A stretch of 64,000 bases of DNA, taken from NCBI GenBank assembly GCA_963739065.1, contig CAVTYV010000004.1, forward strand, positions 193,677-257,676. The letters are read 5' to 3'. The number at the start of each line of letters is the position of its first letter. The first letter of the stretch is position 1. Below the pieces are notes generated by a model. That model searched no databases, had not been told where the DNA came from, and saw nothing but the letters and a program-made list of their open reading frames with translations. The stretch comes from an uncultured Actinomycetes bacterium. GTDB taxonomy: Bacteria; Actinomycetota; Thermoleophilia; Gaiellales; Gaiellaceae. A program made the translations under genes and the position numbers. Positions 2,181-64,000 of the stretch are shown piece after piece.

Positions 2181-3434
2181 GTGCGGTCCGTGACGCGGGC
2201 CCTGAGCGGGGCCGGACTCGGTCTGTTGCGGGAGGCCAGGAGCTTTCGCCTGCTCTTCCTCGCCACGCTCGCGTCCAGCATTGGCACCTGGCTCGCGTTC
2301 GTCGCGCTCGTCATCGACGTGTGGGACCGGACCGAGGACTCGAACTGGGTGAGCGCGCTCCTCATCGTCGAGTTCCTGCCGATCGTCTTCATCGGCCTCT
2401 TTGCCGGGCGCCTGATCGACCGGGCCTCGCGCCGCTGGATCCTCGTCCTCTCCGACGCCGCCCGCGCGGGCGTGTTCTTCGCGCTGCCCTTCGCGACCAG
2501 CGCGCTCCAGATCGTGATGCTCGCGCTGGCCGCCGGTCTCGCGACCAGCGTGTTCCGGCCGGCCGTCTACGCGGGGCTGCCGAACCTCGTGTCCGACGCC
2601 GAGCTGCCCCAGGCGAACGGGCTTCTCCAGACGGCGGACAACCTCACATGGACGATCGGCTCGCTCGTGGGCGGCGCCCTCGTCGCGGCGACGAGCCCGG
2701 ACGTGGCCTACGTCGTCAATGCTGTCAGCTTCACGGTCTCGGCCGTCCTCATCCTCCGCATCCGCGGGCGCCTCGAGGAGGCCGAGCGCGAGCCCAGCCA
2801 GGGAGGGTGGAAGGACATCGTCGAGGGCCTATCGCTCGCCGTCCACTCGCGCGCGCTCGTGACGGTGCTCGTCGCCTGGAGCATCGTGATGCTCGCGAAC
2901 GCCGGGGTGAACGTGTCGGAGGTCGTGCTCGCCAAGAAGGTCTTCGAGGGCGGCGACTTCGGCTACGGGCTGCTCGTCGCGGCGACCGGCTTCGGCCTCG
3001 TCATCGGGAGCTTCTTCGGCGCAACCTGGATCGCGCAGCGTGGCCTGGCCATCCCGTACGGGATCTCGATCGGGCTCATGGCCCTCGGATTCGGAGCGGC
3101 CGCAGCCGCGCCGAACGTCTGGGTGGCCGCGCTCGTCGTCATCGCGGCCGGAGCCGGAAACGGCGTGGCGGTCATCACGAACGCCCTGCTCGTCCAGCGC
3201 GGTGCGCCCGATCGCCTGCGCGGACGCGCGTTCACGGTGGTGATGAGCATCGGCTACGCGGTCCTCGGGCTCGGCATGGTGATCGCCGGCCCCCTGACCA
3301 ACGCGATCGGCGCGCGCGCCGTCTGGGGAATCTCAGCAGCCCTCATGGCCGTCGGAGCGGTCGTCGGCTACCTGCTCGTTCGCGGTGTCACCGCCGAGGC
3401 GAGATCCGCCGAGGCCCTGCCGGCAAGCGATTGA
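2181..3434 (+). CDS. MFS transporter
   Basis: Multi-TM hydrophobic profile with an MFS loop motif (GRLIDRASRRW). The likely start is GTG 2181 or 2190; the earlier part of the track ORF overlaps the hisC 3' end. Confidence 0.8.
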   Translation: MRSVTRALSGAGLGLLREARSFRLLFLATLASSIGTWLAFVALVIDVWDRTEDSNWVSALLIVEFLPIVFIGLFAGRLIDRASRRWILVLSDAARAGVFFALPFATSALQIVMLALAAGLATSVFRPAVYAGLPNLVSDAELPQANGLLQTADNLTWTIGSLVGGALVAATSPDVAYVVNAVSFTVSAVLILRIRGRLEEAEREPSQGGWKDIVEGLSLAVHSRALVTVLVAWSIVMLANAGVNVSEVVLAKKVFEGGDFGYGLLVAATGFGLVIGSFFGATWIAQRGLAIPYGISIGLMALGFGAAAAAPNVWVAALVVIAAGAGNGVAVITNALLVQRGAPDRLRGRAFTVVMSIGYAVLGLGMVIAGPLTNAIGARAVWGISAALMAVGAVVGYLLVRGVTAEARSAEALPASD

Positions 3435-7161: not shown

Positions 7162-8295
7162 TCACAGGCCCAAGTGCCTGGCGATCACTAGACGCTGCAC
7201 CTCGTTCGTTCCTTCCCCGATCTCGAGCACCTTCTGGTCGCGATAGAGGCGGGAGATTGCATACTCGTCCATGAAACCGTAGCCCCCATGGATCTGCAGC
7301 GCGTGGTTGGCAACCCGGTGGGCGAGCTCGCCCGTGTAGAGCTTCGCCATCGCAGCCGCCTGGGCGAACGGACGGCCTTGATCCTTCAGCCAGGCGGCCT
7401 TGTAGACGAGGCCTCGCGCGGCTTCGATCTCGGTCGCCATGTCGGCGAGCTTGAACTGGATCGCCTGAAAGGTCGAGATCGGCTTGCCGAACTGCTTGCG
7501 CTCGCGCGCGTAGCTGGAAGCGAGCTCGAAAGCGCCCTGCGCGAGCCCGAGCCCCATGGCGGCGACCGAGATGCGCCCGCCGTCGAGGATCTCGAGAAAC
7601 TGCCGCAGACCGGCGCCCCGCTCGCCGAGCAGGTTCCCCTCGGGCACGGCGCAATCGCGAAAGGAGAGCTCGCGCGTGTCGGAAGCCCGCCAGCCCATCT
7701 TGCGCATCGGCTCGGAGACCGAGTATCCCTCGGTTCCGCTCGGCACGACGAGGTTGGAGATCTCGTCCTCGCCGGTCCGGGCGGTGATCGTCACGCAGGC
7801 GGAGATGTCCGTGCCCGCGTTGGTGATGAAGATCTTCGAGCCGTTGACGAACCATTGCCCGTTTCGGAGCTCGGCGGTCGTCCGTGTCGCCCCGGCGTCG
7901 GAACCGGCTTCCGCCTCCGTGAGCCCGAACGAGGCGAGCTTCTTCCCAGAGGCCAGGTCGGGCAGCCAGGCCTCCTTCTGCTCATCCGTCCCGTAGAGGA
8001 GGATCGGCATCGTCCCGAGTGACGTGTGCGCCGCAACCGTGATCGCGACGGAGGAGTCGATTCGCGTGAGCTCCTCGATCGCAATCGCGTACGAGAGCGT
8101 GTCTCCGCCGCCGCCGCCGTGCTCCTCCGGGATCGGGATGCCCATGAGCCCGAGCTCGGCCAGCTCGGCGATCAGGTCGTACGGAAAGCGGTGCTCGCGG
8201 TCGAGCTCCTCGGCGACCGGAGCGATCCGCTCCTCCGCGAACTCGCGGACGGTGCTGCGCAGGAGCTCGTGCTCTTCGGGAAGGTCGAAGTTCAA
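7162..8295 (-). CDS. acyl-CoA dehydrogenase
   Basis: FGLTEAEAGSDAG, QIHGGYGF and YRDQKVLEIGEGTNEVQRLVIAR. The TTG start at 8295 overlaps the pepA stop (TTGA). The rest of the 684-aa track ORF is shadow. Confidence 0.9.
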   Translation of the reverse strand: MNFDLPEEHELLRSTVREFAEERIAPVAEELDREHRFPYDLIAELAELGLMGIPIPEEHGGGGGDTLSYAIAIEELTRIDSSVAITVAAHTSLGTMPILLYGTDEQKEAWLPDLASGKKLASFGLTEAEAGSDAGATRTTAELRNGQWFVNGSKIFITNAGTDISACVTITARTGEDEISNLVVPSGTEGYSVSEPMRKMGWRASDTRELSFRDCAVPEGNLLGERGAGLRQFLEILDGGRISVAAMGLGLAQGAFELASSYARERKQFGKPISTFQAIQFKLADMATEIEAARGLVYKAAWLKDQGRPFAQAAAMAKLYTGELAHRVANHALQIHGGYGFMDEYAISRLYRDQKVLEIGEGTNEVQRLVIARHLGL

Positions 8296-15854: not shown

Positions 15855-17960
15855 ATGCCCCGCTGCCCCAACTGCCAGGAGGAAAATCCGGACGCGGCCC
15901 GGTTTTGCCTCGCGTGCGGAAAACCCCTCGAGGAGCGGGCGGAGGAGCCCCGGGACGAACGCAAGATCGTCACCGTCCTCTTCGTCGACCTCGTCGGCTT
16001 CACCGCGCGCGCCGAGACCCTGGATCCCGAGGATGTGCGGGAGATGCTGAACACGTACTACACCCGCCTACGTTCGGAGATCGAGCCCTTTGGCGGCGTC
16101 GTGGAGAAGTTCATCGGGGACGCGGTCATGGCGGTGTTCGGCGCTCCGACTGCGCACGGAGACGATCCCGAGCGGGCGGTCCGGGCCGCTCTCGCGGTGC
16201 GCGAGGCGGTCGCCGATCTGAACGAGGCCGATCCCGAGCTCCATCTCCAGATTCGGCTCGCGGCCAACACCGGTGAGGCGATCGTCTCGCTCGCAGCCAG
16301 GGCCGAGGCGGGCGAAGCGATGATCGCCGGTGACGTTGTCAACACCGCCTCCCGACTCCAGTCGGCGGCACCGACGAACGGCATCCTCGTCGGCGAGGAG
16401 ACCTATCGCGCCACGCGATCGTTGATCGAGTACGAGGAGGCCGACCCGGTCACCGTGAAGGGCAAACGGGAGCCGTGCAGCGTCTGGCTTGCTCAGGGAA
16501 CCAGGACGGCCCCCGGCGAACGCCTCATGAGCACCGTGCCGATGGTCGGGCGAACGAACGAGCTCTCCGTTCTTCACCGGATCTTCGAGAGCGTCACGTC
16601 AGAGCAGCGGCCGCACCTGGTCACCGTCCTCGGGGACGCGGGAATGGGGAAGACCCGTCTGACCGCCGAGTTCACGTCCCAGCTCGAGGACCGCGGCATC
16701 CGCGTCCTCCTGGGACGCTCGCATCCCTACGGCGCCAGCACGTTCTACGGGCCCTTCACACAGCACGTCAAGTCGCTGGCCGGCATCTTCGCGAGCGACG
16801 ATGTGCCCGCGGCGAGGGAAAAGCTGCGTGCGGCCATCGCGCAGCTGCTTCCTGGTGCCGGCTCCGAGGAGGTCGTCTCCCACCTGGAGCTCCTCATCGG
16901 CCTCGGCGCCGACGAGGAGGTCGCCGACCGCCAGACGCTGTTTCTCGCCGCCAGACGCTTTGTCGAAGGCCTCACGCGCGAGGGGCCTGCGGTGCTGGTG
17001 TTCGAGGACCTGCACTGGGCCGATTCGGGCACGCTCGACTTGCTGGAGATCCTCGCCTCGCGCGTCCACGGCGCGCCGTTGCTCCTGCTCGCCCTCGCGC
17101 GGCCGGTGATTCTGCTCGAGCGGCCCGGTTGGGGCGGCGGGCTGACCGCGTATACCGCTCTCACGCTCGAGGCCCTCGCCGAGGCGGATGCGGTCGAGCT
17201 GGCAGCCTCGCTCGCCGGCCCGGAAGGCCCGGCCGGCGATGCCATGCGGCTCGCCGCGGCCTCGGAAGGGAACCCGCTCTTCATCGAAGAGCTCGTCGCA
17301 TCGGTCCGCGAGCGACCGGAAAGCGTCTCAAGCCATTTGCCGACCACGATTCGCGGGCTTCTCTCGGCGCGGCTCGACACGCTCCCGCCGGCCGAGCGGC
17401 TCGTCCTTCTCGATGCGGCCGTCGTCGGCAGGGTGTTCTGGCGCGGCGCTCTCGAGCGGATCCTCGGCGACGGCACGGACCTCAGAGAGGTTCTCGACGC
17501 TCTCGAGGCGCGCGATCTGATCAGGCGTGAGCCGTTTTCGTGGATCGAGGGCGAGGAGCAGTTCGCCTTCAAGCATGTGATGATCCGGGACGCTGCGTAT
17601 GCGACCGTCTCGCGCGCCACGCGCAAGGAGCTCCACGCGGCCGTCGCCGAGTACCTCGAGGAGGCCACCGGGGACGCGGCAGCGACGGCGACCGCGCTCG
17701 CGGGCCACTGGCGCGAGGGGGGCCACCCCGACCGAGCCGTCGGCTACCTCGTGGTCGCCGGTGACCAGGCCGGCCGCGGCTGGGCGAAGGACGAGGCCGC
17801 GAGGCTCTATGGCGAGGCGCTCGAGCTCTTGCCGGAGGACGACGCCGAGCGCCGCCGGGAGCTCAGCCGCAAGCGGGCGCTCGCACTCGCGGCGTCAGCT
17901 CACGTCGAGGACGCTCTCAACCTCACCCAGGTCCGCGAGCGGGAGCCGACCGAGCGGTAG
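15855..17960 (+). CDS. zinc-ribbon / class III adenylate-guanylate cyclase / AAA(STAND) ATPase / TPR-like protein
   Basis: CPNCQ...CLACG zinc ribbon; cyclase homology motifs VTVLFVDLVGFT, KFIGDAVMAVFG and ANTGEA; P-loop GDAGMGKT; a helical-repeat C-terminus. No HTH was seen. Confidence 0.85.
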   Translation: MPRCPNCQEENPDAARFCLACGKPLEERAEEPRDERKIVTVLFVDLVGFTARAETLDPEDVREMLNTYYTRLRSEIEPFGGVVEKFIGDAVMAVFGAPTAHGDDPERAVRAALAVREAVADLNEADPELHLQIRLAANTGEAIVSLAARAEAGEAMIAGDVVNTASRLQSAAPTNGILVGEETYRATRSLIEYEEADPVTVKGKREPCSVWLAQGTRTAPGERLMSTVPMVGRTNELSVLHRIFESVTSEQRPHLVTVLGDAGMGKTRLTAEFTSQLEDRGIRVLLGRSHPYGASTFYGPFTQHVKSLAGIFASDDVPAAREKLRAAIAQLLPGAGSEEVVSHLELLIGLGADEEVADRQTLFLAARRFVEGLTREGPAVLVFEDLHWADSGTLDLLEILASRVHGAPLLLLALARPVILLERPGWGGGLTAYTALTLEALAEADAVELAASLAGPEGPAGDAMRLAAASEGNPLFIEELVASVRERPESVSSHLPTTIRGLLSARLDTLPPAERLVLLDAAVVGRVFWRGALERILGDGTDLREVLDALEARDLIRREPFSWIEGEEQFAFKHVMIRDAAYATVSRATRKELHAAVAEYLEEATGDAAATATALAGHWREGGHPDRAVGYLVVAGDQAGRGWAKDEAARLYGEALELLPEDDAERRRELSRKRALALAASAHVEDALNLTQVREREPTER

Positions 17961-17978
17961 GAGGCTCTTGACAAAACA

Positions 17979-18130
17979 TCGGCTGTTGCCGCCGGAGGCG
18001 CGCCGCTCGCCCCCAGGCTTCGTCCTCGGTCGCCCCCGTATCTAAAGTCGATACGAGGGCTCCCTGCGTCCTTGCCTGGGAACGACCGTCCCGTTCCGGC
18101 GACGAGCGACGTTCCGCCAAAAGCCTCCTA
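17979..18130 (-). repeat. copy A of a ~150 nt structured repeat element, read on the minus strand
   Basis: The reverse complement aligns with 39165-39314. My manual count gives 5 substitutions and 2 single-nt gaps. It starts at the TAG stop of the DUF4242 gene. Confidence 0.8.
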
Positions 18131-18412
18131 GACGGGCGGAAAGTCGTTCGGCGTGACGTCGCCGACGACTTCGTAGACCGCGAGGATCTGATGCATTCCC
18201 AGCGCGTCGGCGTGGCTGCGCACCGCATCCTCGCTCGGGGCGCCGTACACGCAGAACGTCTTGACCATGCCGCGCTCGTCCAGCGTCACGTGACTGTGGT
18301 GCCAGGTGATCTCCGGGAATTGGCCCTCGATCAAGGATCGCGACCGCCTGCCGATCGCTGGCATGTCTTCCTCTCCGACCTCGAACTGCCGCTCGACGAG
18401 GTACACCGGCAC
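18128..18412 (-). CDS. DUF4242-like small protein (paralogue of 6868-7119)
   Basis: 94 aa (MPVYLVERQF...ITWHHSHVTLDERGMVKTFCVYGAPSEDAV). Same family impression as 6868-7119. Confidence 0.65.
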   Translation of the reverse strand: MPVYLVERQFEVGEEDMPAIGRRSRSLIEGQFPEITWHHSHVTLDERGMVKTFCVYGAPSEDAVRSHADALGMHQILAVYEVVGDVTPNDFPPV

Positions 18413-38411: not shown

Positions 38412-38468
38412 CAATCCTCACCTTTTCGCGTGATCCACTCGGGGTCGCCGGAAGCCGATTCCTACGTC

Positions 38469-39167
38469 ATGCGGCGCGGGCTCGCGCTCCTGCTCGTCAC
38501 GGCCGTCGCGGCGGTGGCCGCGGGCTGCTCCGGCGCGGACGCGCAAGAGGCCCAGACGCTGCTCGCGGAGTCGAACGCCGCCTTCGCCCAGGTCCGCTCC
38601 GCCACCTTCACCGCTCGCATCGCGATGACCGGGGGTCCGCAGGAATTCGACATGACGATGAGCGGCGGCGGCTACGCCAAAGGCCGACACGCCGGCGAGT
38701 TCTACGTCGTCGCCACCTCGGACACGCTCCCGTTCCGGGAGCTGACCGCGATCAGCAAATCCGGCCGAGTCGCGATGACCGTCGACGGCACATCGCTCGG
38801 CAACATTCCGGCGCCGCAGCAGACGGACAACCCCATCCAGCTCGTCGACCTCTCCCAGTACGTGAAGGACGTCGAGGTCGAACACGGGAAGCTCATCGAC
38901 GGCGAGTCCATGGCGAAGATCTCGGGTGTGATCGACACGGCCGGCCTCGCCAAGGGCGCACTGGCCGACGTCACGGGGATGGGGGAGAGCGGCATCGATC
39001 TCTCGAAGGCGCTCGGAGACACGCGCGTCGTCTTCTACATCTCCGAGTCGACGCACCTGCCCATGCGCGGGCTCGTAGACGTGCCGATCGAGGTCGCGGG
39101 GCAGAAGATCGAGATGCACCTCGACTTCGCGTACACGTCGTACGACACCAAGATCGACTTTCCCTAG
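38469..39167 (+). CDS. lipoprotein (family not identified)
   Basis: ATG 38469 MRRGLALLLVTAVAAVAAGCSG carries a lipobox. 232 aa. Its last codons and TAG stop lie at the edge of repeat copy B. Confidence 0.65.
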   Translation: MRRGLALLLVTAVAAVAAGCSGADAQEAQTLLAESNAAFAQVRSATFTARIAMTGGPQEFDMTMSGGGYAKGRHAGEFYVVATSDTLPFRELTAISKSGRVAMTVDGTSLGNIPAPQQTDNPIQLVDLSQYVKDVEVEHGKLIDGESMAKISGVIDTAGLAKGALADVTGMGESGIDLSKALGDTRVVFYISESTHLPMRGLVDVPIEVAGQKIEMHLDFAYTSYDTKIDFP

Positions 39168-39314
39168 GAGGGTTTGGCGGAACGTCGCTCGCCGCCGGGA
39201 CGAGACGGTCGTTCCCAGGCAAGGACGCAGGGAGCCCTCGTATCGACGTTAGATACGGGGGCGACCGAGGACGAAGCCTGGGGGCGAGCGGCGCGCCTCC
39301 GGCGGCACAGCCGA
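39165..39314 (+). repeat. copy B of the ~150 nt structured repeat element
   Basis: See copy A. It lies between the lipoprotein stop and the acyl-CoA dehydrogenase start (39377). Confidence 0.8.
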
Positions 39315-39376
39315 GTTTCGTCATGCCCTCTTACGAGACGGGAGGGCGGGCGGCCGCCTCTATACTCGCCGCCGGG

Positions 39377-40528
39377 ATGGACTTCGAGCTCTCGCCCGAA
39401 CAGCTCGAGATTCGGGGGCTTGCGCGGGACTTCGCCGCGGCAGAGATCGAGCCCCACGCGGCCGACTGGGATCGGGAGCATCGCTTCCCGAGCGACCTAC
39501 TCGTGCAACTTGCCGAGCTGGGCCTCATGGGCGTCTGCGTTCCAGAGGAGCTCGGTGGGGCCGGCGCCGACTTTCTCTCCTACATCCTCGTGCTCGAGGA
39601 GCTTTCGCGCGGCGACGCCGGCATCGGCGTCACGGTCGCCGTCCACACCAGCGCCGGAACCCTTCCGATCGTCGCGCACGGAACTCCCGAGCAGCAGGCC
39701 GAACACGTCCCTCCACTCGCGCGTGGAGAGAAGCTCGGAGCCTTCGCGCTGACAGAGCCGGAAGCCGGCTCCGACGCCGCGTCGCTGCGCACCCGCGCCG
39801 AGGCCGACGGCGACGGGTGGCTGATCACCGGCACCAAGCGCTGGATAACGAACGGCGGCGGGCGGGGGACGTTCGTCCTCTTCGCCCGCACCGACGCCGG
39901 CATCTCGTGCTTCCTCGTCGACGGCGGCGCCGATGGTGTCGAGATCGCCCGCGAGGAGGAGAAGCTCGGTTTGAACTCGAGCTCCACCGTGGATCTCGCC
40001 CTCGACGGCGTTCGCGTCGGCCCGGCCCAACTGTTGGGCAAGGACGGCAAGGGGTTCACGATCGCCATGCAGACCCTGGACGGTGGGCGCATCGGCATCG
40101 CGGCCCAGGCACTCGGCATCGCCCAGGCGGCCTACGAGGTGGCGCGGTCGTACGCGCTCGAGCGCCGCCAGTTCGGCAAGCGCATCGCCGAGTTCCAGGC
40201 GATCCAGTGGAAGCTCGCCGACATGGCGACTGAGATCGAGGCGGCTCGGGGGCTCGTCTACCGGGCTGCCGCGCTCCGGGACGCCGGCGAGCCCCATGCC
40301 GAAGCCGGGGCGATGGCAAAGCTCTTCGCCTCGGGTGTCGCGCGCCGCCAGACGGCCGAGGCGATCCAGGTGCTCGGCGGCGCGGGGTACACAAAGGATT
40401 TCCCGGTGGAGCGCTACTACCGCGACGCCAAGATCACGGAGATCTATGAGGGGACAAGCGAGATCCAGCGCCTCGTCATCGCGCGCTCGATCCTCGGGCT
40501 GAAAGGCCGTGAGAAGGTAACCGCGTGA
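39377..40528 (+). CDS. acyl-CoA dehydrogenase (short/butyryl-CoA type)
   Basis: MDFELSPEQLEIRGLARDFA, FALTEPEAGSDAAS and YRDAKITEIYEGTSEIQRLVIAR. ATG 39377 is preferred over the much longer track ORF. Confidence 0.9.
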   Translation: MDFELSPEQLEIRGLARDFAAAEIEPHAADWDREHRFPSDLLVQLAELGLMGVCVPEELGGAGADFLSYILVLEELSRGDAGIGVTVAVHTSAGTLPIVAHGTPEQQAEHVPPLARGEKLGAFALTEPEAGSDAASLRTRAEADGDGWLITGTKRWITNGGGRGTFVLFARTDAGISCFLVDGGADGVEIAREEEKLGLNSSSTVDLALDGVRVGPAQLLGKDGKGFTIAMQTLDGGRIGIAAQALGIAQAAYEVARSYALERRQFGKRIAEFQAIQWKLADMATEIEAARGLVYRAAALRDAGEPHAEAGAMAKLFASGVARRQTAEAIQVLGGAGYTKDFPVERYYRDAKITEIYEGTSEIQRLVIARSILGLKGREKVTA

Positions 40529-41100
40529 GGAAGCGAAGCGAGCCCGTACGCCTCACCCGCATCTACACGCGCGGGGGAGACGCCGGCGAGACGAGCCTGG
40601 GGGACGGTCGGCGCGTTCCCAAGACCGATCCGCGCATCGAGGCCTACGGCACCGTCGACGAGCTGAACTCGGTGCTCGGGCTCGTCCTCGCCTCGCCCGA
40701 GCTGCCGGACGAGTTCCGGCCCTGGCTCGAGCAGGTGCAGAACGACCTCTTCGACGTCGGCGCCGATCTCTGCGTCCCCCTCGAAGACAAGCGCGAGCGC
40801 CTGCGTATCGATCCCGCGCAGGTGGGGCGGCTCGAGGCGCTTTGCGACCTCGTCAACGCGCGCCTGGAGCCGCTGAAGAGCTTCATCCTGCCCGGCGGCG
40901 GCGAGGCCGCCTCGCGCCTCCACGTCGCGCGCACGGTCTGCCGCCGGGCCGAACGGGCGGCAGTGGCGCAGGCCGAAGCGGAGGACGCGAACCCCGTGGC
41001 CCTCGCGTATCTCAATCGCCTCTCGGATCTGCTCTTCATCCTCGCGCGCGCCTCAGCGGTCGGCGACGAGCCACTCTGGAAGCCTGGGAGCTCCTCCTAG
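40525..41100 (+). CDS. ATP:cob(I)alamin adenosyltransferase, PduO type
   Basis: IYTRGGDAGETSL and TVDELNSVLG are typical of the PduO/MMAB family. The GTG overlaps the upstream stop (GTGA). Confidence 0.85.
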   Translation: MRKRSEPVRLTRIYTRGGDAGETSLGDGRRVPKTDPRIEAYGTVDELNSVLGLVLASPELPDEFRPWLEQVQNDLFDVGADLCVPLEDKRERLRIDPAQVGRLEALCDLVNARLEPLKSFILPGGGEAASRLHVARTVCRRAERAAVAQAEAEDANPVALAYLNRLSDLLFILARASAVGDEPLWKPGSSS

Positions 41101-41822: not shown

Positions 41823-44529
41823 CTAGCGCCCGCGTGACGCGGCGGAAGCGACTGGCTCACCGTGTGCATGAGGCGCTGATCCCAGAACAGGATCGGGCTC
41901 GACGTTTCCCGCCGTGACGTTGCGGGGGAGACGCGGCTTGCGGGCGCGCAGCGCCATTGCGCCGGCCGCGACGAACGCGCCGCCGAGGAGGGTGAGACCG
42001 AGCCAGTCGGCGCAACGGTGAGGAGCTGTCTTCGCCCGCCGTGAAGCTCTGCGGCTGCACTTCGCCCGAGCCGCCCGAGCTTTCCGTTCCATCCGACCCG
42101 GTCGCCGGAGTCAGCGGGGTGCCGCCGGTCGTGCCTCCGGTCGTTCCTCCGGTCGTGGCCCGAGGTGGGGCCGGGAGTCGGTGCACCGCCGTTGTAGGAA
42201 GGCCCCGGATAGGTCGGCCCACCAGAGGTGGTCCCTGATCCGAACCCGCCGCCGGCCGGCGGCGGAGGAGTCGTGCCGCCCCTGCTGGCGGGCCCGCGGG
42301 AAACCGTTAGGCCGATCGCGGCACCCTTCAGCGCCACGCCCGAGCGCGAGCTCAGGACGAGCCCGGCGCCGACCGTTGCGGAGTAGGAGTAGCGCACCGC
42401 GCCGGTGCGAAGTCCGCGGGCGGTCAGGCGAGCCTTCGCCGCAGCCGGGGTCAGCTTCTGCACGGCGGGGACGATCACGAGCGCGCGGGTCTTGGGCCCG
42501 ACGTTGCCGGCCGCGTCGCGCGCCGCGAGCTGGAAGGCCCGGGAATCCGAGGTCTTGAAGGCGCCCATGTTGGCGGAGCGCTTGGATCCCGCCAAGGTCT
42601 TGACCACGGATCCGTTCGCGTAGACGAGGTACGCGTCGACGACGCCGCTGTTGTCCGTGGCCGCCTTCCACTTGAGGACGAGGTGGCGGTTCCGGTTCGT
42701 GCCGGAGAACTTCCGAGGCTTGGTGGGCACCCTGACGTCCTTGAGGAGGCTGAAGGAGGAGAGGTGCTTCGTGAGGATGTGGACGTTCGACCCGGACTTG
42801 TAGAAGCCGTCGACCCAGCCGCTCGGGAGGCTCGTGCCGCTCGGGATGCGGGCGATCGTCCGCCAGGCACCGCTTTCGAACGTGGCGGGCACGACGTTCG
42901 CTGCGCCCGGGATGGTCAGGTCGAGGGCCTTCGAGAAGGTGTGCACCGCAGTGCCCGCGAGCGCCCAATGCGCCGAGACGTCGTAGATGTCGCCCGCAGT
43001 CTCGAACCCGCCCGGCACGGTCGCCGGCGGCCGCGGGTCGATCCGGATGACGAGCCAGTCGCCGCTCGGTGCGCCGCTCCACGCTCCCGACGGGACGTTG
43101 ATCTGGCCCTCGCCGCTCGTCGCCGTCAGCGACGTCAGCCGACTCCAGGGAACGAGTTCTTCTCGATCCACGGGTAATCGGCCGCGGCGAGGCTCCAGAC
43201 CGTGAAGTGGACTGCAATCGCATGCGCGGTTGCCCGCCGCATCCTCGAGCTCGCCGGTGAACGTGTGCGGCCCGTCCGCGAAGGCGGCGGTGTAGGTGGC
43301 GGTCCCGCCGAGCGAGGAGCGGGGCCGGGGCGGCCGAGCCGTCGAGGGTCGCATTGGCGATGCCGGCAGAGGTTCTCGTCCGCGACGATGGCCAGGGACC
43401 CGGCGGCGGCCACGAGCTCGCCGTCGGCGGGCACAGAGGAGGTCAGCGAGGGAGCCGTGTTGTCGACCGTGACCGTTCGCACGGGCGAGTTCGCGGGGTT
43501 GCCCGCGTTGTCGGTCGCCCGGGCACGGAGGTCGTAGCTGCCGTCGGCAACCCCGGTCGTGTTCCAGCTCGTGGCGATCGTCGTCCAGATGCCGGCGCCC
43601 GCAGGCGAGCGCTGGACGATGAGGCTGGCGACTCCAGAGCCGCTGCCGTCGTCTGCCGAGGGGCTCAGGGTCACGGTGCCGCGCAGGGGCGAGCCGGGGT
43701 CGGCCAGAGAGACGTTCGGCGCGGTCGCGTCGATCGTCCACGCGGCGCTGTCGGGCGTCGCGTCCGTGTTGGCCGAGCCGTCGGTGGCGCGAACGTCGAA
43801 GGTGTGGGCGCCGTCCGCGAGGCCGGTGAAGGTGGCAGGGCTCGAGCAGGAGGCGAACGCCGCGCCGTCCACCGAGCACTCGAAGGTGCTGCCGGACTCG
43901 TCGGAGGTGAACGCGAAGGTCGCATCCGGGACTCGCCGAGAGGGCGGGCGGGCCCGACGTGATCGTCGTCTCGGGCGGGTCGAGGTCGGCGGCGTTGTTG
44001 ACCGCTGCTCCAGTCGAACTGGACGCTCACCGCGGAGCCCTGGTACGCGTTCTCCGACGCCGGGGCCGGCGTCGGGGAAGAAGACGCGGAACTCGTAGAC
44101 GCGGGCCGCTCCGGCCGTCAGCGTTCCGAGCGCGACCGGCGTGAGCGCGTCGATCTTGCCGTTGTAGACGACGACTGGGGAGCCGGGGGCCGTCACGTCG
44201 CGAATGCGTAGGTCGAGCTCACCGGAGAGGACGCCGCCGCCGCCGCCCGGCGTGTCGACCAGGTTGGAAGTGGAGAGCGAGAGGTCGCCTTCGAGCGTGC
44301 CGGTGTTCCCGAGCGTCACGGTGTCGGTGACGGAGTCGCCCGGCCGCATCCCGCCGAGCGAGAGGATGGCGGCGCCTTCCTTGTCGTTGGAGAGGGTCAG
44401 CGAGCCGCCGGGGCCCGCAGCGAGCTCGAGCTGTGCGCGAGAAGGCTGCTGGCCGCCCGAGAGGACGGCCAGGCAGATCGCGACGATCACGACGGCGAGG
44501 ACTTCGAGTCTGAGGAAGATGCGTCGCAT
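41823..44529 (-). pseudogene. giant surface protein 2: TasA-like N-domain + Ig-like + FN3-like + PASTA-like + C-terminal anchor, many frame breaks
   Basis: ATG 44529 (MRRIFLRLEVLAVVIVAICLAV) lies 2 nt after the upstream TAG. The N-domain parallels the TasA-like protein at 47575-48135 (GMRPGDSVTDTVTLGNTGTLEG, YEFRVFFPDAG, SVQFDW). It is followed by PPETTITSGP...TFECSVDGAAF...HTFDVRATD and one 96-aa Ig-like unit. Then come FN3-like LVLKWKAATDNSG, PASTA-like LTARGLRTGAV...GLTVSRGP, a G/T/P linker, and a hydrophobic segment plus RARKPR. By my reading at least eight frame changes are needed (near 44050, 44000, 43950, four in 43400-43140, and 42190-42030). Confidence 0.6.
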
Positions 44530-44531
44530 TC

Positions 44532-46884
44532 CTAGAACTCCGCGTCCACCGGAGGGGAGGTCTCGAGGCAGGTCACCGTCGTGATCGCGTTGCCAGCGAT
44601 GTCCGTGAGGGCCGCTGCGACCGGCCAGCTCGGTCTGTCCCGTGGTGCCGGCCTGGGTGAACTGGGGCTTGTCGGGGGCGCCGAGCGTCAGCGTGACCGT
44701 CGTCCCGCTCTGAGCGATCGTCGAGTTCGAGAAGACGACGGCCTTACCGTTCTGGATGTAGCCCGTGCCGCCGAGCGTGATGAACCCGTTGACGAGCGTC
44801 GCGCCGGTGATGGAGAGGTGGTTGCCGGTGTCCATCGTCACCGTCACGTTCTGCGTGCCGGTGCCGTTCCAGCCGGCGACGATCGTGCCGGGGGCAATCT
44901 GCTCGCTGAAGGTGAAGACGAGGGTGTCGCCCTGCTGCGGCTGCCCGGGCGTCGTGCCGGTGACGCCGGTCTGGACGTTCGTCGCCGTCGGCGCCGTGTT
45001 GTCGACGACTCGGTTCGAGACTGTCGAGGAGTTGGTGGCGTTGCCGGCGTTGTCGGTCGTGACCGCGCGGAGGTCGTAGCCGCCGTCGGAGACGCCGGTC
45101 GTGTTCCACGAGCAGGAGTAGGGGCTGGTGGCGTCGGTGCAGATCGTCGTCCACGTCGATGTGCCGGTCGGCGCGCGCTGGATGGCGACGTTGAGGACGC
45201 CGGAGCCGGCGTCCGTGCCCGTCGCGTTGAGCGTGACGGTCTGGCGGAGCGGCGAGCCGGGGTCGGTCAGGCCGGCCGTCGGCGCCGTGTTGTCGACGCG
45301 GCGGTTCGTCGACCGTGGAGGAGGTCGTCGTGTTCCCCGCGTTGTCCGTGGTAATAGCGCGGAGGTCATAGAGGCCGTCGGTGACTCGCGGTCGTGTCCA
45401 AGGCGCAGCAGTAGGGCGACGTGGCGTCGGTGCAGATGTCAGTCCACGTTCCGGCGCCGGCCGGCGAGCGCTGCATCTTCACGCTGGCGACCCCGGAGCC
45501 GCCGTCGGTACCCGTGGCGCCGACAGGTGACGGTCGGATGCAGAGGCGTGCCCGGATCCGTGAGGCCGGCGGTGGGAGCCGTGTTATCGACGCGCCGGTT
45601 CGTCACGGTCGACGAGGTCGTCGTCTTGGCCACGTTGTCCGTCGCGATCGCGCGCAGGTCGTAGAGCCCGTCGGAGACGGCCGTCGTGTTCCACGAGCAC
45701 TGGAAGGGCGAAGTCGTGTCGGTGCAGATGTCCGTCCAGGTGCCCGCACCGGCGGGGGAGCGCTGGATCTTGACGTTCGCGACGCCGGAGCCTGCGCCGT
45801 CGCCCGCTGTCGCGTCGACGGTGATCGTGCCCTTGAGGTACTGGCCTGGATCCGTCACGGAGACGGTCGGAGCGGTGTTGTCGACGATCGCGCCCGAGTA
45901 GACGGTCGAGTTGGCCGTGTTGCCCGCGTTGTCCGTGGCGACCGAGCGGAAGTCGTACTGGCCGTCGGCGAGCCCGGTCGTGTCGTAGGAGCACGAGTAG
46001 GGCGACGTCGTATCGGAGCACATGTCGCTCCAGGTGTTCAGCCCGGTCGGGGAGGACTGGAACTTGAGGGAGGCGACGCCCGAGCCGCCGTCGCTCGCCG
46101 TGCCGTCGAAGCTCTTGTTCCCGGTGATGGGCGAGCCCGGATTCGTCATCGTCGCCGTCGGGGCGGTGTTATCGACGCGCCGGTTGGTGACGGTCGAGGA
46201 GTTCGTCGAGTTGCCCGCGTTGTCGGTCGAGACGGAGCGGAGGTCGTAGAGCCCGTCGGAGACGGCCGTCGTGTCCCACGAGCACGAGTAGGGGGAGCTC
46301 GCATCGGTGCAGATGTCAGTCCAGGTTCCGGCGCCTGCCGGCGAGCGCTGCACCTTCACGTTGGCAACGCCCGATCCGCCGTCCGTGCCGGTCGCGCTGA
46401 CACTGACCGTTCCCTTGAGGGGCGTGCCCGGGTCGGTGATTCCGGCCGTGGGTGCCGTGTTGTCGACGCGGCGGTTCGTCACCGCCGTCGAGGTTGCGGA
46501 GCCGCCGGCGTCGTTCTGGACGAAGGCCCGGAAGTCGTACAGCCCGTCCGTGACGGTCGTGCTGTCCCAGGAGCAGGAGTAGGGCGACGTCGAGTCGGTG
46601 CACGCCGTCGTCCAGGTGCCCGCGCCCGCTGGGGACTTCTGAATCGTCACGAGCGTGATCGAGGAGCCGTCCCCTCCGTCCGAGGCTGTGGCCTGGAGCG
46701 TGGCCGTCGCGTGGAGGTTCGTTCCCGGATCCGTCATCGTCGCGCTGAGGTTGAAGGCGTTCGAAGCCGTGAAGCTGTTCCCCGAATTGGCGCTGGCCGC
46801 GGTGAACGCGGCCCCGGAGAACGTGACGCCAGCCACGACGAGAGCCGCGACCGCGAGGAACGATGCGAGGGCGCGAAGCCTCAC
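44532..46884 (-). pseudogene. giant surface protein 1: SipW-type signal peptide + six tandem ~96-aa Ig-like repeats + C-terminal domain, frame breaks in the 3' half
   Basis: The N-terminus MRLRALASFLAVAALVVAGVTFSGAAFTAASANSGNSFTA is TasA-class signal-like. Repeats fit VDNTAPTxxxTDPGxPLxGTVxxxATGxDxGSGVANVKxQRSPAGAGTWTDICTDxxSPYSCSWxTTxVxDGLYDLRxxxTDNAGN. The gene is intact from 46884 to about 45560. About four frame changes are then needed at 45300-45530 and one near 44600, before TAG 44532-44534. Confidence 0.65.
45006..46749 (-). repeat. tandem array of six ~288-bp coding repeats (Ig-like modules)
   Basis: Protein-level periodicity is seen in the track ORFs 45439-46884 and 43135-45369. The units are divergent at nucleotide level but share conserved blocks. 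Confidence 0.7.
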
Positions 46885-60152: not shown

Positions 60153-63100
60153 GTGCGGACCGCAGCGGCCCAAACCAACCGCCTCTGGCGGCTGACCCGA
60201 ACAACCCTCTGGCAGCGCTCCGCGCTCGCCGCCGGAATCATCGTCCTGGGCTTGATTCAGCTTGCCGGCTCGCAAGCGGCAGTCAGCGCGACGCCGGATG
60301 AGGTCGGGCAGTGGAGCGCGCCGGTCGCCTGGCCGCTCGTCGCCGTCCACATGTCCCTCGAACCCGACGGCCGGGTGTTCACGCTCGACGGGTTCGACGC
60401 AGCGCTGAACTCCGAACGGCTTTGGAACCCCGTCAACGGAACGTTCACCGCGGTTCCGTACAGCCGGAATCTCTTCTGCGCCGGCCACGTCCAGCTCGCG
60501 GACGGCCGCACGCTCATCGTGGGCGGCCACATCACAGCGAACTCGGGTCTCGCGGACACGACGATCTTCGATTCGCGGACGAACACGTACTTCCGCGGGC
60601 GCGACATGTCGGTGGGCCGCTGGTATCCGACCGCGACGGTGCTGCCCGACGGCCGCGTTCTGGCCTTCTCGGGCGACAACATCGTCCAGGACCGGCCCGG
60701 CGCAACGCATCCCTTCTCGGACGCCTCGGTTGACTCGCTCCCCTCTGTCTACGACCCGAAGACGAACACCTGGACGGACCTGACGGCTGCGACGCTGACG
60801 TCCCCGCTCTACCCATTCATGTTCGTGCTGTCGGACGGTCGCGTCTTCGACGCAGGCCCCGATACGACGACTCGCATCCTCGACGTCGGGACGTCCACGT
60901 GGACGACGGTGGGAACCAGCCCGATCGACGGCATGAGCGCGGTCATGTACCGGCCCAACAAGATCATGAAGGCCGGCACATGGGCCGACCCGGACTGGAA
61001 CGGAGCGCTCGCGTACAACGCCGCAGGCGGCACGGCGGTCATCGACATGAGCGCTCCCACGCCTACGTGGCGCTCGACCGCGCCGATGGCGTTCGGGCGC
61101 TCGTACCACAACCTCACCCTGCTTCCCGACGGAACCGTCCTCGCGAGCGGCGGCATGTCCGGGTCGGATGGGACCGATCTCACCAAGGCCGTGCTTCCGG
61201 CCGAGATCTGGGATCCGGACACGGAGACGTGGACGACGGTCGCCTCGCTCCAGAACGGCCGGGAGTACCACTCGACGGCCCTCCTCCTGCTCGACGGCCG
61301 CGTGCTCATGGCAGGCGGCGGCGCTCTGCCGGGCCGGGCCACCGACCAGAAGAACGCGGAGATCTACTCGCCTTCGTACCTGTTCAAGGGAGCGCGCCCG
61401 ACGATCTCGTCGGCTCCCTTGTCGGCCACCTACGGCTCTTCCTTCGACATCCAGACTCCGGACGCCGCCCAGATCACGAAGGTCTCCCTGGTCAGGTCGC
61501 CTTCGGTGACGCACGGGTTCGACCAGAACCAGCGCTTCCAGTTCCTCAACTTCACTCAAGGCGCCGGGAAGATCACCGTGCAGGCGCCGGCGAATGCGAA
61601 TCTGGCGCCGCCGGGCGACTACATGCTGTTCATCCTCAACGGCTCGAAGGTCCCCTCCACCGGGGTGATGATGTCCGTCTCCGCGCCGGTCGACTCGGCG
61701 CCGCCGACGGCTCCCTCGAACCTCCAGGCGGCCAGCGCGCCGGGGCAGGCGTCGCTCACGTGGACCGCGGCGACCGACGACGTGGGCGTCGCCCATTACA
61801 ACGTGCACCGCGGCACTACGAGCGGGTTCACCCCTACGGCCGCGAACCGGATCGCGCAGCCGGTCGGCACGAACTACACGGATGCCAGCCTCAGCGCGGG
61901 CACCTACTTCTACAAGGTCACCGCGGAGGACGTGGCCGGCAACGTCGGTCCGGCGTCGAACGAGGCGAGTGCGACGATCGTCGGCGGGCCGGCGATCGCT
62001 TCGTACGGGTTCGAGGAGGGGACCGGTTCGACCACGGTCGACATATCCGGCAACAGCAACAACGGGACGATCTCCAACGCGACGTGGTCCACAGCCGGGA
62101 AATTCGGAAAGGCGCTCTCCTTCAACGGCACGAACGCGTCCGTCTCGATCCCCGACTCGAGCTTGCTGGACCTCACGACGGGAATGACGATCGAAGGCTG
62201 GGTCAACCCGGCCGCGAGCGGCGGCTTCCGGACGATGATGGTGAAGGAGCGGCCCGGCGACCTCGTGTACGGCCTCTACTCGAGCTCGGACACGAACCGC
62301 CCGCAGTCGCAGGTCACGGTCGGGGGAACGGCGCGGCTTTTGAACGCGACCGCCACGATCCCCTCGGGCTCCTGGACCCATCTTGCGGCTACGTACGACG
62401 GGACGACGCAGCGTCTCTACGTCAACGGGACGCAGGTCTCGACGCTCGCCATTTCGGGGACGATTCTCACCTCGAACTCGCCGCTGAAGATCGGCGGAAA
62501 CTCGATCTGGGGCGAGTGGTTCGCCGGGTTGATCGACGAGGTGCGCGTGTACAACCGCGCGCTCACTGCAACGGAGATCCAGGCCGACATGAATGCTCCG
62601 GTCAGCCCACCGGACCCGCTGCCCCCGAGCGCGCCGGGGACGTTGACGGCAACCGGCGGGCTGGGGCAGGTCAACCTGAGCTGGGGAGCCGCGACCGACA
62701 ACCTCGGCGTCGCGAGGTACAACGTCCACCGCTCGACGACTCCGGGATTTACGCCGAGCGCGGGTAACCGGATCGCCCAGCCGACGGGGACGAGCTACAC
62801 CGACTCCGGTCTGGCAGCCGGCACCTACTACTACAAGGTCACTGCTGAAGACGCCGCCGGGAACGTGGGCCCGGTCTCGAATGAGGCGAGCGCGGCGGCG
62901 ACGGCCGATACGACGCCGCCGACGGCGCCGACCAACCTCCTGGCGACGGGAGCACCCCAACAGGTGAGCCTCACATGGACGGCGGCCACCGACGCCGGGG
63001 GAATCGCCCGCTACAACGTCCACCGGAGCACGACGAGCGGCTTCACGCCTTCGGCGGGGAACCGGATCGCTCAGCCCACGGGGACGAGCTACACCGACTC

Positions 63101-64000
63101 CGGTCTGGCAGCCGGCACCTACTACTACAAGGTCACTGCTGAAGACGGCGCGGGCAATGTCGGGCCCGGTTCGAACGAGGCCAGCGCCACCGTGCCCAAC
63201 GGGCCGCCGCCCGGGCTCGTCGCCGCCTACGGCATGGATGCCGGATCCGGCACGACGCTCGCCGACCAGTCGGGCAACGGCAACAACGGCACGCTCGCGA
63301 ACGTGAGCTGGGCCGGGCCCACGGCGGGCAAGTTCGGTAACGCCCTCTCCTTCAACGGGACGAACGCCTCGGTGAGCATCCCCAGCTCGGCCTCGCTCGC
63401 CCTCACGACAGGGATGACGCTCGAGGCCTGGGTGCGCCCGACGACGCTCTCGAACGGGGACTGGAACACGGTCATCTTCCGCGAGCGGCCCGGCTACTAC
63501 GCGGACGCCCTCTATGCCAACACGGGTGCGAACCGTCCCTCGGGCAACATCTACACGAACCTCGACTACGACCTGCGCGGGACGGCCCAGCTACCGCTCG
63601 CCACCTGGACGCACCTCGCCGCCACCTACGACGGCACCGTGTTCGCGCTCTACGTGAACGGGACGCAGGCCGCGACGGTCTTCGCGAGCGGCTCGATCAT
63701 CACCACCACGGGGGCGCTCAAGATCGGCGGCAACGCCATCTGGGGCGAGAACTTCAACGGACTGATCGATGAGGTGCGCATCTACAACCGCGCTCTCACC
63801 GTGGGTCAGATCCAGAGCGACATGAACGCGGCGATCACGAACCCCGATTCGACGCCTCCCTCTGCGCCCGGCACGCTGACGGCGACAGGCGGACTTACGT
63901 CTGCGCAGCTCACTTGGGGCACGGCTACCGACAACGTCGGTGTCGCGCGCTACAACGTCCACCGGTCGACGACCCCGGGCTTCACGCCATCGGCGGCGAA
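60153..64000 (+). CDS. giant secreted galactose/glyoxal-oxidase-like protein with FN3 and LamG (concanavalin-like) modules, 3' end outside the window
   Basis: This frame is open from 60117 to the window end; it is not in the track, presumably because it has no stop. GTG 60153 gives a signal-like N-terminus (SALAAGIIVLGLIQLAGSQAAVSA). It is followed by kelch-type propeller motifs (LFCAGHVQLADGRTLIVGG, VGRWYPTATVLPDGRVL, REYHSTALLLLDGRV). A DUF1929-like end (GDYMLFILNG) follows, then FN3-LamG-FN3-FN3-LamG-FN3. Confidence 0.8.
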   Translation, partial: MRTAAAQTNRLWRLTRTTLWQRSALAAGIIVLGLIQLAGSQAAVSATPDEVGQWSAPVAWPLVAVHMSLEPDGRVFTLDGFDAALNSERLWNPVNGTFTAVPYSRNLFCAGHVQLADGRTLIVGGHITANSGLADTTIFDSRTNTYFRGRDMSVGRWYPTATVLPDGRVLAFSGDNIVQDRPGATHPFSDASVDSLPSVYDPKTNTWTDLTAATLTSPLYPFMFVLSDGRVFDAGPDTTTRILDVGTSTWTTVGTSPIDGMSAVMYRPNKIMKAGTWADPDWNGALAYNAAGGTAVIDMSAPTPTWRSTAPMAFGRSYHNLTLLPDGTVLASGGMSGSDGTDLTKAVLPAEIWDPDTETWTTVASLQNGREYHSTALLLLDGRVLMAGGGALPGRATDQKNAEIYSPSYLFKGARPTISSAPLSATYGSSFDIQTPDAAQITKVSLVRSPSVTHGFDQNQRFQFLNFTQGAGKITVQAPANANLAPPGDYMLFILNGSKVPSTGVMMSVSAPVDSAPPTAPSNLQAASAPGQASLTWTAATDDVGVAHYNVHRGTTSGFTPTAANRIAQPVGTNYTDASLSAGTYFYKVTAEDVAGNVGPASNEASATIVGGPAIASYGFEEGTGSTTVDISGNSNNGTISNATWSTAGKFGKALSFNGTNASVSIPDSSLLDLTTGMTIEGWVNPAASGGFRTMMVKERPGDLVYGLYSSSDTNRPQSQVTVGGTARLLNATATIPSGSWTHLAATYDGTTQRLYVNGTQVSTLAISGTILTSNSPLKIGGNSIWGEWFAGLIDEVRVYNRALTATEIQADMNAPVSPPDPLPPSAPGTLTATGGLGQVNLSWGAATDNLGVARYNVHRSTTPGFTPSAGNRIAQPTGTSYTDSGLAAGTYYYKVTAEDAAGNVGPVSNEASAAATADTTPPTAPTNLLATGAPQQVSLTWTAATDAGGIARYNVHRSTTSGFTPSAGNRIAQPTGTSYTDSGLAAGTYYYKVTAEDGAGNVGPGSNEASATVPNGPPPGLVAAYGMDAGSGTTLADQSGNGNNGTLANVSWAGPTAGKFGNALSFNGTNASVSIPSSASLALTTGMTLEAWVRPTTLSNGDWNTVIFRERPGYYADALYANTGANRPSGNIYTNLDYDLRGTAQLPLATWTHLAATYDGTVFALYVNGTQAATVFASGSIITTTGALKIGGNAIWGENFNGLIDEVRIYNRALTVGQIQSDMNAAITNPDSTPPSAPGTLTATGGLTSAQLTWGTATDNVGVARYNVHRSTTPGFTPSAA
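62783..62852 (+). repeat. 70-nt block identical to 63078-63147 (inside adjacent FN3 modules)
   Basis: ACGGGGACGAGCTACACCGACTCCGGTCTGGCAGCCGGCACCTACTACTACAAGGTCACTGCTGAAGACG is present at both positions. Confidence 0.85.
63078..63147 (+). repeat. second copy of the identical 70-nt block
   Basis: See 62783-62852. The flanks are similar but diverged. Confidence 0.85.

Follow-up and report, generated by a model that had tools for sequence, protein, structure and literature searches.

Several families of short repeats placed at gene boundaries have been described in bacteria. The ERIC or IRU sequences of enterobacteria are imperfect palindromes of 127 bp with a conserved centre, which are inserted in the transcribed intergenic regions of operons, are present or absent at a given site depending on the species, and exert orientation-dependent effects at the RNA level; they are not known outside Gammaproteobacteria. 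In mycobacteria, the MIRUs lie between cistrons, with one end overlapping the upstream gene's stop codon and the other the downstream gene's start codon. The Correia elements of Neisseria (CREE or NEMIS), the best studied among bacterial MITEs that duplicate TA, are flanked by a TA duplication and undergo RNase III processing. These elements are ~100–160 bp long, with terminal inverted repeats, a conserved internal core and no ORF, and tens to hundreds of copies lie next to genes, on which they act as co-transcribed hairpins (PMC2649163). Among autonomous elements, the IS630 family duplicates TA, IS630 itself favouring the TA in CTAG, and the Tc1-mariner type ISY100 makes staggered cuts two nt inside its 5′ ends and can leave cut-and-paste footprints (PMC2170065). 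Finally, the REP, BIME and REPIN sequences associated with RAYT proteins are extragenic palindromes, many of them placed right after stop codons, between convergent or co-directional genes, which are thought to act as RNA hairpins and are recognised strand-specifically as single-stranded DNA (PMC3733652, PMC12306157).

The 64-kb stretch of DNA analysed here (the window) carries exactly two copies of a non-coding element whose behaviour is closest to that of the TA-duplicating MITEs (Correia) and of IS630, and whose placement resembles that of REP, ERIC and MIRU. On the best reading, both are members of a multi-copy, MITE-like non-coding family of Thermoleophilia, and the window is probably of Gaiellales origin. 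The copies and the genes that adjoin them are the following:

17960–18128, minus strand: copy A of the element, 169 nt, sub-family T1, GGAGGCTTTTGGCGG...CAAGAGCCTCC, delimited by alignment and folding
18129–18130, minus strand: left TA of copy A, which with the first G of the element makes the TAG stop of the DUF4242 gene
17958–17959, minus strand: right TA of copy A, the duplicated target according to the empty-site comparison
18128–18412, minus strand: DUF4242 / SCO4226-like gene (PF14026) upstream of copy A, its stop overlapping the TA and the first base of the element
15855–17960, plus strand: convergent guanylate-cyclase/AAA_16 gene, 701 aa, its stop overlapping the far end of copy A
39167–39331, plus strand: copy B of the element, 165 nt, sub-family T1, GGAGGGTTTGGCGG...CATGCCCTCT
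39165–39166, plus strand: left TA of copy B, which with G39167 makes the TAG stop of the lipoprotein gene
39332–39333, plus strand: right TA of copy B
38430–39167, plus strand: lipoprotein gene upstream of copy B, with its actual start probably at the ATG at 38469

A first-pass annotation of the window had reported two inverted copies of ~150 nt, and a repeat search, blastn and a covariance model all confirmed that they are real and not due to chance. The repeat search paired the arms 17987–18121 and 39173–39307 (135 nt, 97% complementary), blastn aligned the copies with 94.5% identity over 163 nt (E=8e-67), and a global alignment including the flanking TA gave 160/173, placing the identity at 92–95%, with TA on both sides of each copy. 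A covariance model of the core (R1), run on the 64-kb window, scored the two copies at 83.9 and 83.3 bits and its next best match at 13.4 bits. The reported length held for the aligned part but fell short at the 3′ end, where the element continues for ~20 nt more; these last ~20 nt of the 3′ arm are the most divergent stretch between the copies and still pair with the 5′ end, one terminal pair being swapped between them (GGAGGC/GCCTCC in A, GGAGGG/CCCTC in B). The terminal inverted repeats are GGAGGCTTTTGGCGGAACGTCG / CGATGTTTTGTCAAGAGCCTCC, with the family consensus GGAGGGTTTGGCGGAAT.../...CCAAACCCTCC. The element has no coding capacity, and only spurious high-GC ORFs cross the 165–169 nt between annotated stop and start codons. 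That each copy starts as TAGGAGG, with the TAG being the stop codon of the upstream gene, was correct for both; moreover, the convergent 701-aa gene ends in a TAG (17958–17960, +) whose G is contributed by the far end of copy A. The similarity had also been described as reaching into both genes. The shared CGACTTTCC, encoding DFP, is indeed there, but it does not belong to the element: it occurs in DUF4242 alleles that lack the element, ..(D/E)FP is how the lipoprotein natively ends, as conserved in 16 homologues, and the lipoprotein homologues looked up (P0002, P0007, P0016) have no element after the gene. A co-transposed flank was ruled out by its presence in empty alleles and its being native to both genes and, on these comparisons, the shared stretch is a coincidence of two native gene ends.

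The window holds other repeats as well. Tandem repeats of 291–294 nt with 63–83% identity (families D1–D10) occupy 43458–46693 and 61683–64000; these probably correspond to Ig-like domains repeated within very large surface proteins, and the neighbours in relatives have Big_13/PASTA matches. An inverted repeat of 175 nt (7338–7512 / 40151–40325, 74%), whose second arm lies within an acyl-CoA dehydrogenase (ACAD) gene, probably reflects a paralogous acyl-CoA dehydrogenase gene on the other strand.

Each copy was predicted to fold end to end into one long imperfect hairpin, of −116.2 kcal/mol for copy A (z=−9.9) and −115.5 kcal/mol for copy B (z=−7.8), and the complementary strands folded more weakly (−78.3 and −87.5, respectively) because many of the pairs are G-U. 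The absence of a match to a known RNA family, already stated in the first-pass annotation, stood up to searches with Rfam 15, which at gathering thresholds gave 0 matches over the whole window and in E-value mode, with copy A and two other family members, gave noise (E>2, at most 15 bits against thresholds of 38–142), and with ARAGORN, which recognised neither a tRNA nor a tmRNA. A confident Rfam or known-MITE match, which had been named as what would remove the novelty of the element, did not appear, and the element is still MITE-like in behaviour. Moreover, blastn against plasmid and phage collections returned no match, and an IMG/VR scan with a 17-mer of the core found 3 contigs only. No σ70 promoter was found within the elements by a scan at both copies, and neither an IHF-type site nor end promoters were recognised in the window copies. 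The reading as an intrinsic terminator was rejected, as the scan gave no terminator-like site and no T-run (U-tract) after the hairpin at either copy. Other candidates were discarded by inspection. The segment CUGACGAG at the 5′ side of short family copies, suggestive of a hammerhead, is accounted for by pairing with CGUCA of the opposite arm, and no Rfam model matches it; a kink-turn was ruled out by reading, since the tandem G.A pairs lie between Watson-Crick pairs on both sides and have no adjacent 3-nt bulge. Similarly, integron attC sites were rejected in view of the GGAGG../..CCTCC ends in place of R″/L″...L′/R′ boxes with a GTTRRRY core, the two copies inverted 21 kb apart, and the lack of arrays and of an integrase among recurrent neighbours.

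Comparison with orthologous loci showed that both window copies are insertions, as their sites are empty in relatives. At site A, ten metagenome contigs (L118–L127) encode the identical DUF4242 protein with 6 nt, and not 167, between the convergent genes. In the nearest outgroup (L144–L146, 89% identical protein), the site reads CCGCCCGTC-TA-G-CGCTCGG, with the two convergent stops overlapping in CTAG, and the window reads CCGCCCGTC-TA-[GGAGGC...GCCTCC]-TA-C-CGCTCGG. Relative to this outgroup, site A shows one TA duplicated at CTAG, and the sole difference in the flanks is a synonymous CGC>CGG change in the last codon of the 701-aa gene. The allele of the ten contigs (~6011–6020 in L118) has 10 extra bases (GCTCCTAC+TA) compared with the outgroup CTAG and reads GTC-TA-GCTCCTAC-TA-CCGC, retaining one base from the start of the element and four from its end. 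In its simplest reading, this allele is possibly an imprecise excision footprint, which differs from the canonical TA-GG-CC-TA.

At site B, three outgroup lineages (L132–L137), with a lipoprotein 82–91% identical, have the TAG, a spacer of ~40 nt and the next gene, without the element. The right junction of copy B has 6 bases (CGAGAC) after the TA that are missing in these outgroups, in a fast-evolving spacer. A near-identical strain (L128) carries the copy-B element with a 106-nt internal deletion. A third comparison of filled and empty sites, at L027, shows only that insertion took place in the TA of a TAG stop, as the relatives are non-syntenic downstream. As a separate observation, the ACAD gene that follows copy B (39377–40528) is missing in L132–L137, where only ~40 nt separate the lipoprotein gene from Cob_adeno_trans, the next gene; the ACAD ORF of the window starts at the same ATGGAC as the Cob_adeno_trans gene of the relatives, and the latter gene (40525–41100) restarts at a GTG at 40525. 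The arrangement suggests that a gene was inserted precisely at a start codon.

Copies were also searched in other genomes, as the first-pass annotation had proposed, by means of a 20-mer from the centre of the element (CAGGCAAGGACGCAGGGAGC) in genome contigs. This seed occurred at more than 117 loci among the matches listed, all in soil MAGs of Thermoleophilia, carried by Gaiellaceae, Solirubrobacterales, Conexibacteraceae and Thermoleophilaceae (orders Gaiellales and Solirubrobacterales), and the covariance model retrieved ~10 additional unseeded copies in 772 kb of fetched loci, or ~1 per 77 kb. The view that the window holds a dispersed element and not a gene duplication was borne out by both copies being insertions relative to orthologous loci and by the family lying at these more than 117 unrelated loci among the matches listed. 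Identity reaches 98% within one MAG, against a mean of 83% between genomes. The family has a purine-rich, invariant core of ~95 nt around a covarying hairpin, CAAGGACGCAGGGAGC ... GCGACYGAGGACGC, which in aligned form reads (G)CCAGGC-AAGGACGCAGGGA-GC[variable hairpin]GC-GACYGAGGACGCN-GCMTGG. The core is enclosed by outer arms paired with one another. In the window, its parts are placed as follows:

18000–18096, minus strand (copy A), and 39198–39294, plus strand (copy B): core module matched by R1
18059–18074, minus strand (copy A), and 39220–39235, plus strand (copy B): 5′ core motif CAAGGACGCAGGGAGC, invariant, part of R1
18032–18060, minus strand (copy A), and 39234–39262, plus strand (copy B): apical hairpin, free in sequence, with pairing kept across the family
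18017–18033, minus strand (copy A), and 39261–39277, plus strand (copy B): 3′ core motif GCGACYGAGGACG(N)(N)GC, near-invariant

The core motifs were invariant or nearly so in more than 100 species-level MAGs from at least two orders. In an alignment of 108 sequences, most positions of the 3′ half of the core, which lies outside the search seed, were at least 90% conserved or invariant, and its single variable base, a Y, pairs with G as G-C in 57 sequences and as G-U in 51. CAAGGACGCAGGGAGC was identical in 8 of the 10 members that had not been selected by it, with GCGACYGAGGACGC kept and the closing helix covarying. Covariation was pronounced in the apical hairpin (e.g., GC:42/CG:40 and CG:49/AU:28); over the 108 sequences, 86% of the cells were paired, against at most 40% when the partners were slid, and the covariation score was 0.297 against 0.130 after shuffling, with none of 500 shuffles reaching 0.297. 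By our reading, the apparent internal loop of the core can also be represented as an uninterrupted helix that contains three tandem G.A/A.G mismatches and a single bulged C. The core is asymmetric, with GGACGC in both halves on the same strand, and is not a duplex palindrome. In one Gaiellaceae MAG, two copies (L038 ~2960–3060 and L073 466–564) carry inside the 3′ half of the core a GC-rich hairpin of ~45 nt (GGGGCCCCGC..CACGAAGTG..CACTTCGTGGGG), which may be a nested small repeat of another family.

The family is also biased towards the strand defined by its core. On that strand, the mismatches of the outer arms were G.T in 409 cases and A.C in 106 (~4:1), with the same ratio in every gene context, and 108 of 114 copies folded better on it, by a mean of 19 kcal/mol. 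Therefore, some single-stranded form of that strand would be under selection. For 61 of the 80 copies in co-directional contexts, the strand that folds better runs against the flanking genes, and the host mRNA carries the weaker, pyrimidine-rich complement, so that the selected form would not simply be the host mRNA.

Different termini surround the same core. Sub-family T1, to which both window copies belong, ends as TA-GGAGGGTTTGGCGGAAT.../...CCAAACCCTCC-TA, termini shared by ~20 loci, and sub-family T2 as TA-GTGSNCC.../...GGNSCAC-TA; a third group consists of short copies of ~100 nt without arms of either type. T1 copies were mostly found between convergent genes (12) or behind a co-directional gene (6 against 2), and 25 of the 28 T2a copies lay between co-directional genes in the same orientation. 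The neighbouring genes share no functional theme. Two T1 derivatives have lost the core and keep both termini and the TA flanks: the deleted copy at the copy-B site (L128:140–250, JGI 3300028796) and a 66-nt mini-element after a propionyl-CoA carboxylase gene (L047:6615–6681). In one T2 copy (L102 ~1030–1060), the right end is followed by a partial second right end (CCACTAGTGGAGGGCCACTAATGG). Among the short copies, four sets (L016/L084/L110, L037/L048/L077, L045/L085/L116 and L044/L105/L108) have common flanks in three species each, at sites that include the end of a σ70 gene, the vicinity of ilvN (ilvBN) and the space between pitA and its partner gene, a pattern suggestive of retention over long periods at orthologous positions.

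At 38 operon junctions, the first bases of the element overlap with or directly adjoin the upstream stop, and CACT(G/A) precedes the start codon. For example, in the S10/spc ribosomal-protein operon the element was found at L2|S19 in two MAGs and at L23|L2 in a third, with the sites empty in others, which points to independent insertions at different junctions; each of these copies provides the upstream cistron with its stop and places a GGAGG ahead of the following start. The empty L23|L2 sites read GTC-TGATG-GCT and the filled one GTC-T[AGTGGCTC...GAGCCACT]GATG-GCG, with the stop now made of T+AG, the start retained and a GGAGAG 8 nt before it. The operon copies in L011, L035, L114 and L033 are all antisense to the S10/spc operon. 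Where a T2 copy adjoins an ATG, the junction is CACTG-ATG, and the empty L23|L2 site, TGATG, contains no TA that could be duplicated; such T2 junctions without a TA duplication are a problem for a uniform IS630 model.

T1 copies were flanked by TA in 12/17 cases on the left and 15/17 on the right, and T2 copies in 23/40 and 19/40, respectively, against a TA background of 1.05% in these loci. By our reading of 19 T1 copies, a G or an A follows the right TA in 12, which is what insertion into the TA of a TAG or TAA stop codon would leave behind. Transposition of IS630/Tc1 type with TA duplication is the best-supported mechanism, and we favour it with slightly better than even confidence. A transposase acting in trans, most likely of the IS630/Tc1-mariner type, would cut and paste the element into a TA, preferably in CTAG or in a TAG/TAA stop codon, and the TA would be duplicated. 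The TA and the first G of the element would then restore a TAG stop, with the old stop left behind the element, so that insertions into stop codons would be nearly neutral and would accumulate exactly at gene ends. As a consequence of this placement, the mRNAs of the DUF4242 and lipoprotein genes would carry from the stop codon onwards a 3′ hairpin of about −116 kcal/mol which, by analogy with REP, ERIC and Correia elements, should affect ribosome termination, 3′-end stability or read-through. The core would be a site needed for propagation, bound by the transposase or a host factor or acting in a single-stranded intermediate.

Part of the evidence fits this mechanism poorly. Neither the window nor ~1 Mb of fetched loci contained a transposase gene with matching termini, pairs of termini 0.6–3 kb apart gave nothing convincing beyond chance pairs, and the clustering of 901 neighbouring proteins from 117 loci revealed no enriched family, the largest being present at 9/117 and none being a transposase. 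The most conserved part of the family is its centre, common to sub-families with different termini, which is the reverse of an ordinary MITE and counts against the MITE model; the G.T excess over A.C is not predicted by a transposase that binds duplex DNA and likewise counts against IS630/Tc1-type transposition, as do the 6 extra bases at site B and the deviation of the putative footprint of site A from the canonical form. The unexplained core, the strand bias and the transposase that was not found keep a mechanism or function based on single-stranded DNA or RNA alive. One such reading, which we regard as rather unlikely, is that the element moves as single-stranded DNA, like REP/REPIN-RAYT or IS200/IS605, and is mobilised by an HUH/Y1 enzyme specific for one strand. 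In that case, the folded sense strand would be bound by the enzyme, putatively at the irregular G.A-rich core, and the TA...TA would be a cleavage-site dinucleotide present at the target and at the right end of the element, without true duplication. The strand bias is in accordance with it, since it holds whatever the direction of host transcription, as are the asymmetry of the core and its tandem G.A mismatches (by our reading), which would be stable in single-stranded DNA and RNA alike, and the T2 junctions without TA duplication; moreover, insertion 3′ of a TA by an element with its own right-end TA looks identical to the TA duplication of site A. On the other hand, no recurrent Y1/RAYT-like gene family was seen around the 117 loci, the GTAG and CGTC tags that define the known REP super-families (PMC3733652) are both missing from the elements, the two termini form true inverted repeats of the kind seen in DDE elements, and IS200/IS605 carry separate sub-terminal hairpins at their ends, which do not pair end to end, and need a target of 4–5 nt.

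It is also possible, although held here with low confidence, that the core is a structured RNA module selected for a function in the host, mobility only spreading its copies, which is compatible with IS630/Tc1-type transposition. The module could be a platform for a protein or the ribosome, a processing or stability signal, or a coupling cassette made of stop codon, hairpin and Shine-Dalgarno sequence. The near-invariance of the core in so many species-level MAGs with covarying helices, the short copies apparently kept at the same positions in several species (judged by their common flanks), the overlap of operon copies with the upstream stop together with a GGAGG 7–8 nt before the next start, and the uniform orientation of T2a all agree with such a function, and E. 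coli REPs placed at most 15 nt from a stop codon have been reported to stall ribosomes (PMC12306157). What argues against it is that the better-folding strand is mostly antisense in co-directional contexts, that the neighbouring genes are functionally diverse, that the core-less derivatives in L128 and L047 persist, and that both window sites are empty in close relatives with no visible compensation. A chance or local duplication, e.g., by ectopic gene conversion involving two intergenic regions and not reflecting any family, would account for there being only two copies in the 64-kb window, but it has a negligible probability: it is refuted by the same core occurring at the many listed loci and in the unseeded copies of other genomes, in unrelated contexts, with the same termini at ~20 of them, and by both window sites being empty in relatives. 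Beyond these readings, and with no more than tentative support from us, the G.A-rich, strand-asymmetric core might be the working part of the element, a putative RNA or single-stranded DNA module for a dedicated protein, and the family a new class of structured mobile elements instead of passive IS630 MITEs, with T1 specialised for stop codons and T2 for operon junctions, where it would provide the stop, a coupling hairpin and a Shine-Dalgarno sequence.

In relation to the described systems, the family has the properties of MITEs in being non-coding, shorter than ~300 bp, bordered by terminal inverted repeats and dispersed, with presence/absence polymorphism; a target-site duplication is seen at site A, with 6 extra bases at site B and some T2 junctions without TA. 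The resemblance to the Correia elements extends to size, the flanking TA duplication, terminal inverted repeats, lack of an ORF, copy number next to genes, a conserved internal core and co-transcribed hairpins acting on neighbouring genes. In contrast to them, the sequence and host phylum are unrelated, the invariant centre is common to sub-families with different termini, the one-strand pairing bias is strong, insertions coincide precisely with stop and start codons, and the window copies showed neither an IHF-type site nor end promoters. With IS630 and ISY100 the element shares the duplicated TA target in CTAG, found at site A as CTAG -> C-TA-[element]-TA-G/C, but it carries no transposase gene, its cognate IS was found neither in the window nor in ~1 Mb of fetched loci, and some T2 junctions lack TA. 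REP/BIME/REPIN sequences are similar extragenic palindromes after stop codons; however, REPs have 20–40 nt with a GTAG/CGTC tag (PMC3733652), whereas the present elements have 100–200 nt, are tagged by TA(G), end as (C)TA-GGAGG or (C)TA-GTG and show no RAYT gene near the 117 loci. Identity with REP/REPIN was therefore rejected on size and tag. ERIC/IRU sequences are likewise imperfect palindromes with a conserved centre, placed in operon intergenic sites that may be filled or empty, but they are unrelated in sequence and have neither a reported precision at stop and start codons nor a G.A-rich core. The MIRUs share the actinobacterial host and the overlap with stop and start codons; unlike the present family, they are direct tandem repeats that encode small coupling ORFs, with neither hairpins nor inverted termini.

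Thus, the kind of element is known and the family is new, as is the combination of an invariant core with pairing biased to one strand; the literature on Thermoleophilia repeats and MITEs, in searchable sources, contained no description of it and nothing relevant. The Thermoleophilia are abundant soil actinobacteria of which very few have been cultured, and no repeat or RNA family had been described for them in these sources. The family is widespread (more than 117 listed loci, ~1 copy per 30–80 kb), and the precision with which it marks gene boundaries will confuse gene callers, assemblers and operon predictions in Thermoleophilia MAGs; the covariance model R1 could be used to annotate it. 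It also provides an example of a nearly harmless transposable element in a compact high-GC genome, in which the rare TA of stop codons would be targeted and the stop rebuilt, with one sub-family (T2) also providing the ribosome-binding site of the next gene. Moreover, the invariant core and the one-strand bias, which the standard MITE model does not predict, constitute a testable lead to a new protein-nucleic-acid recognition system.
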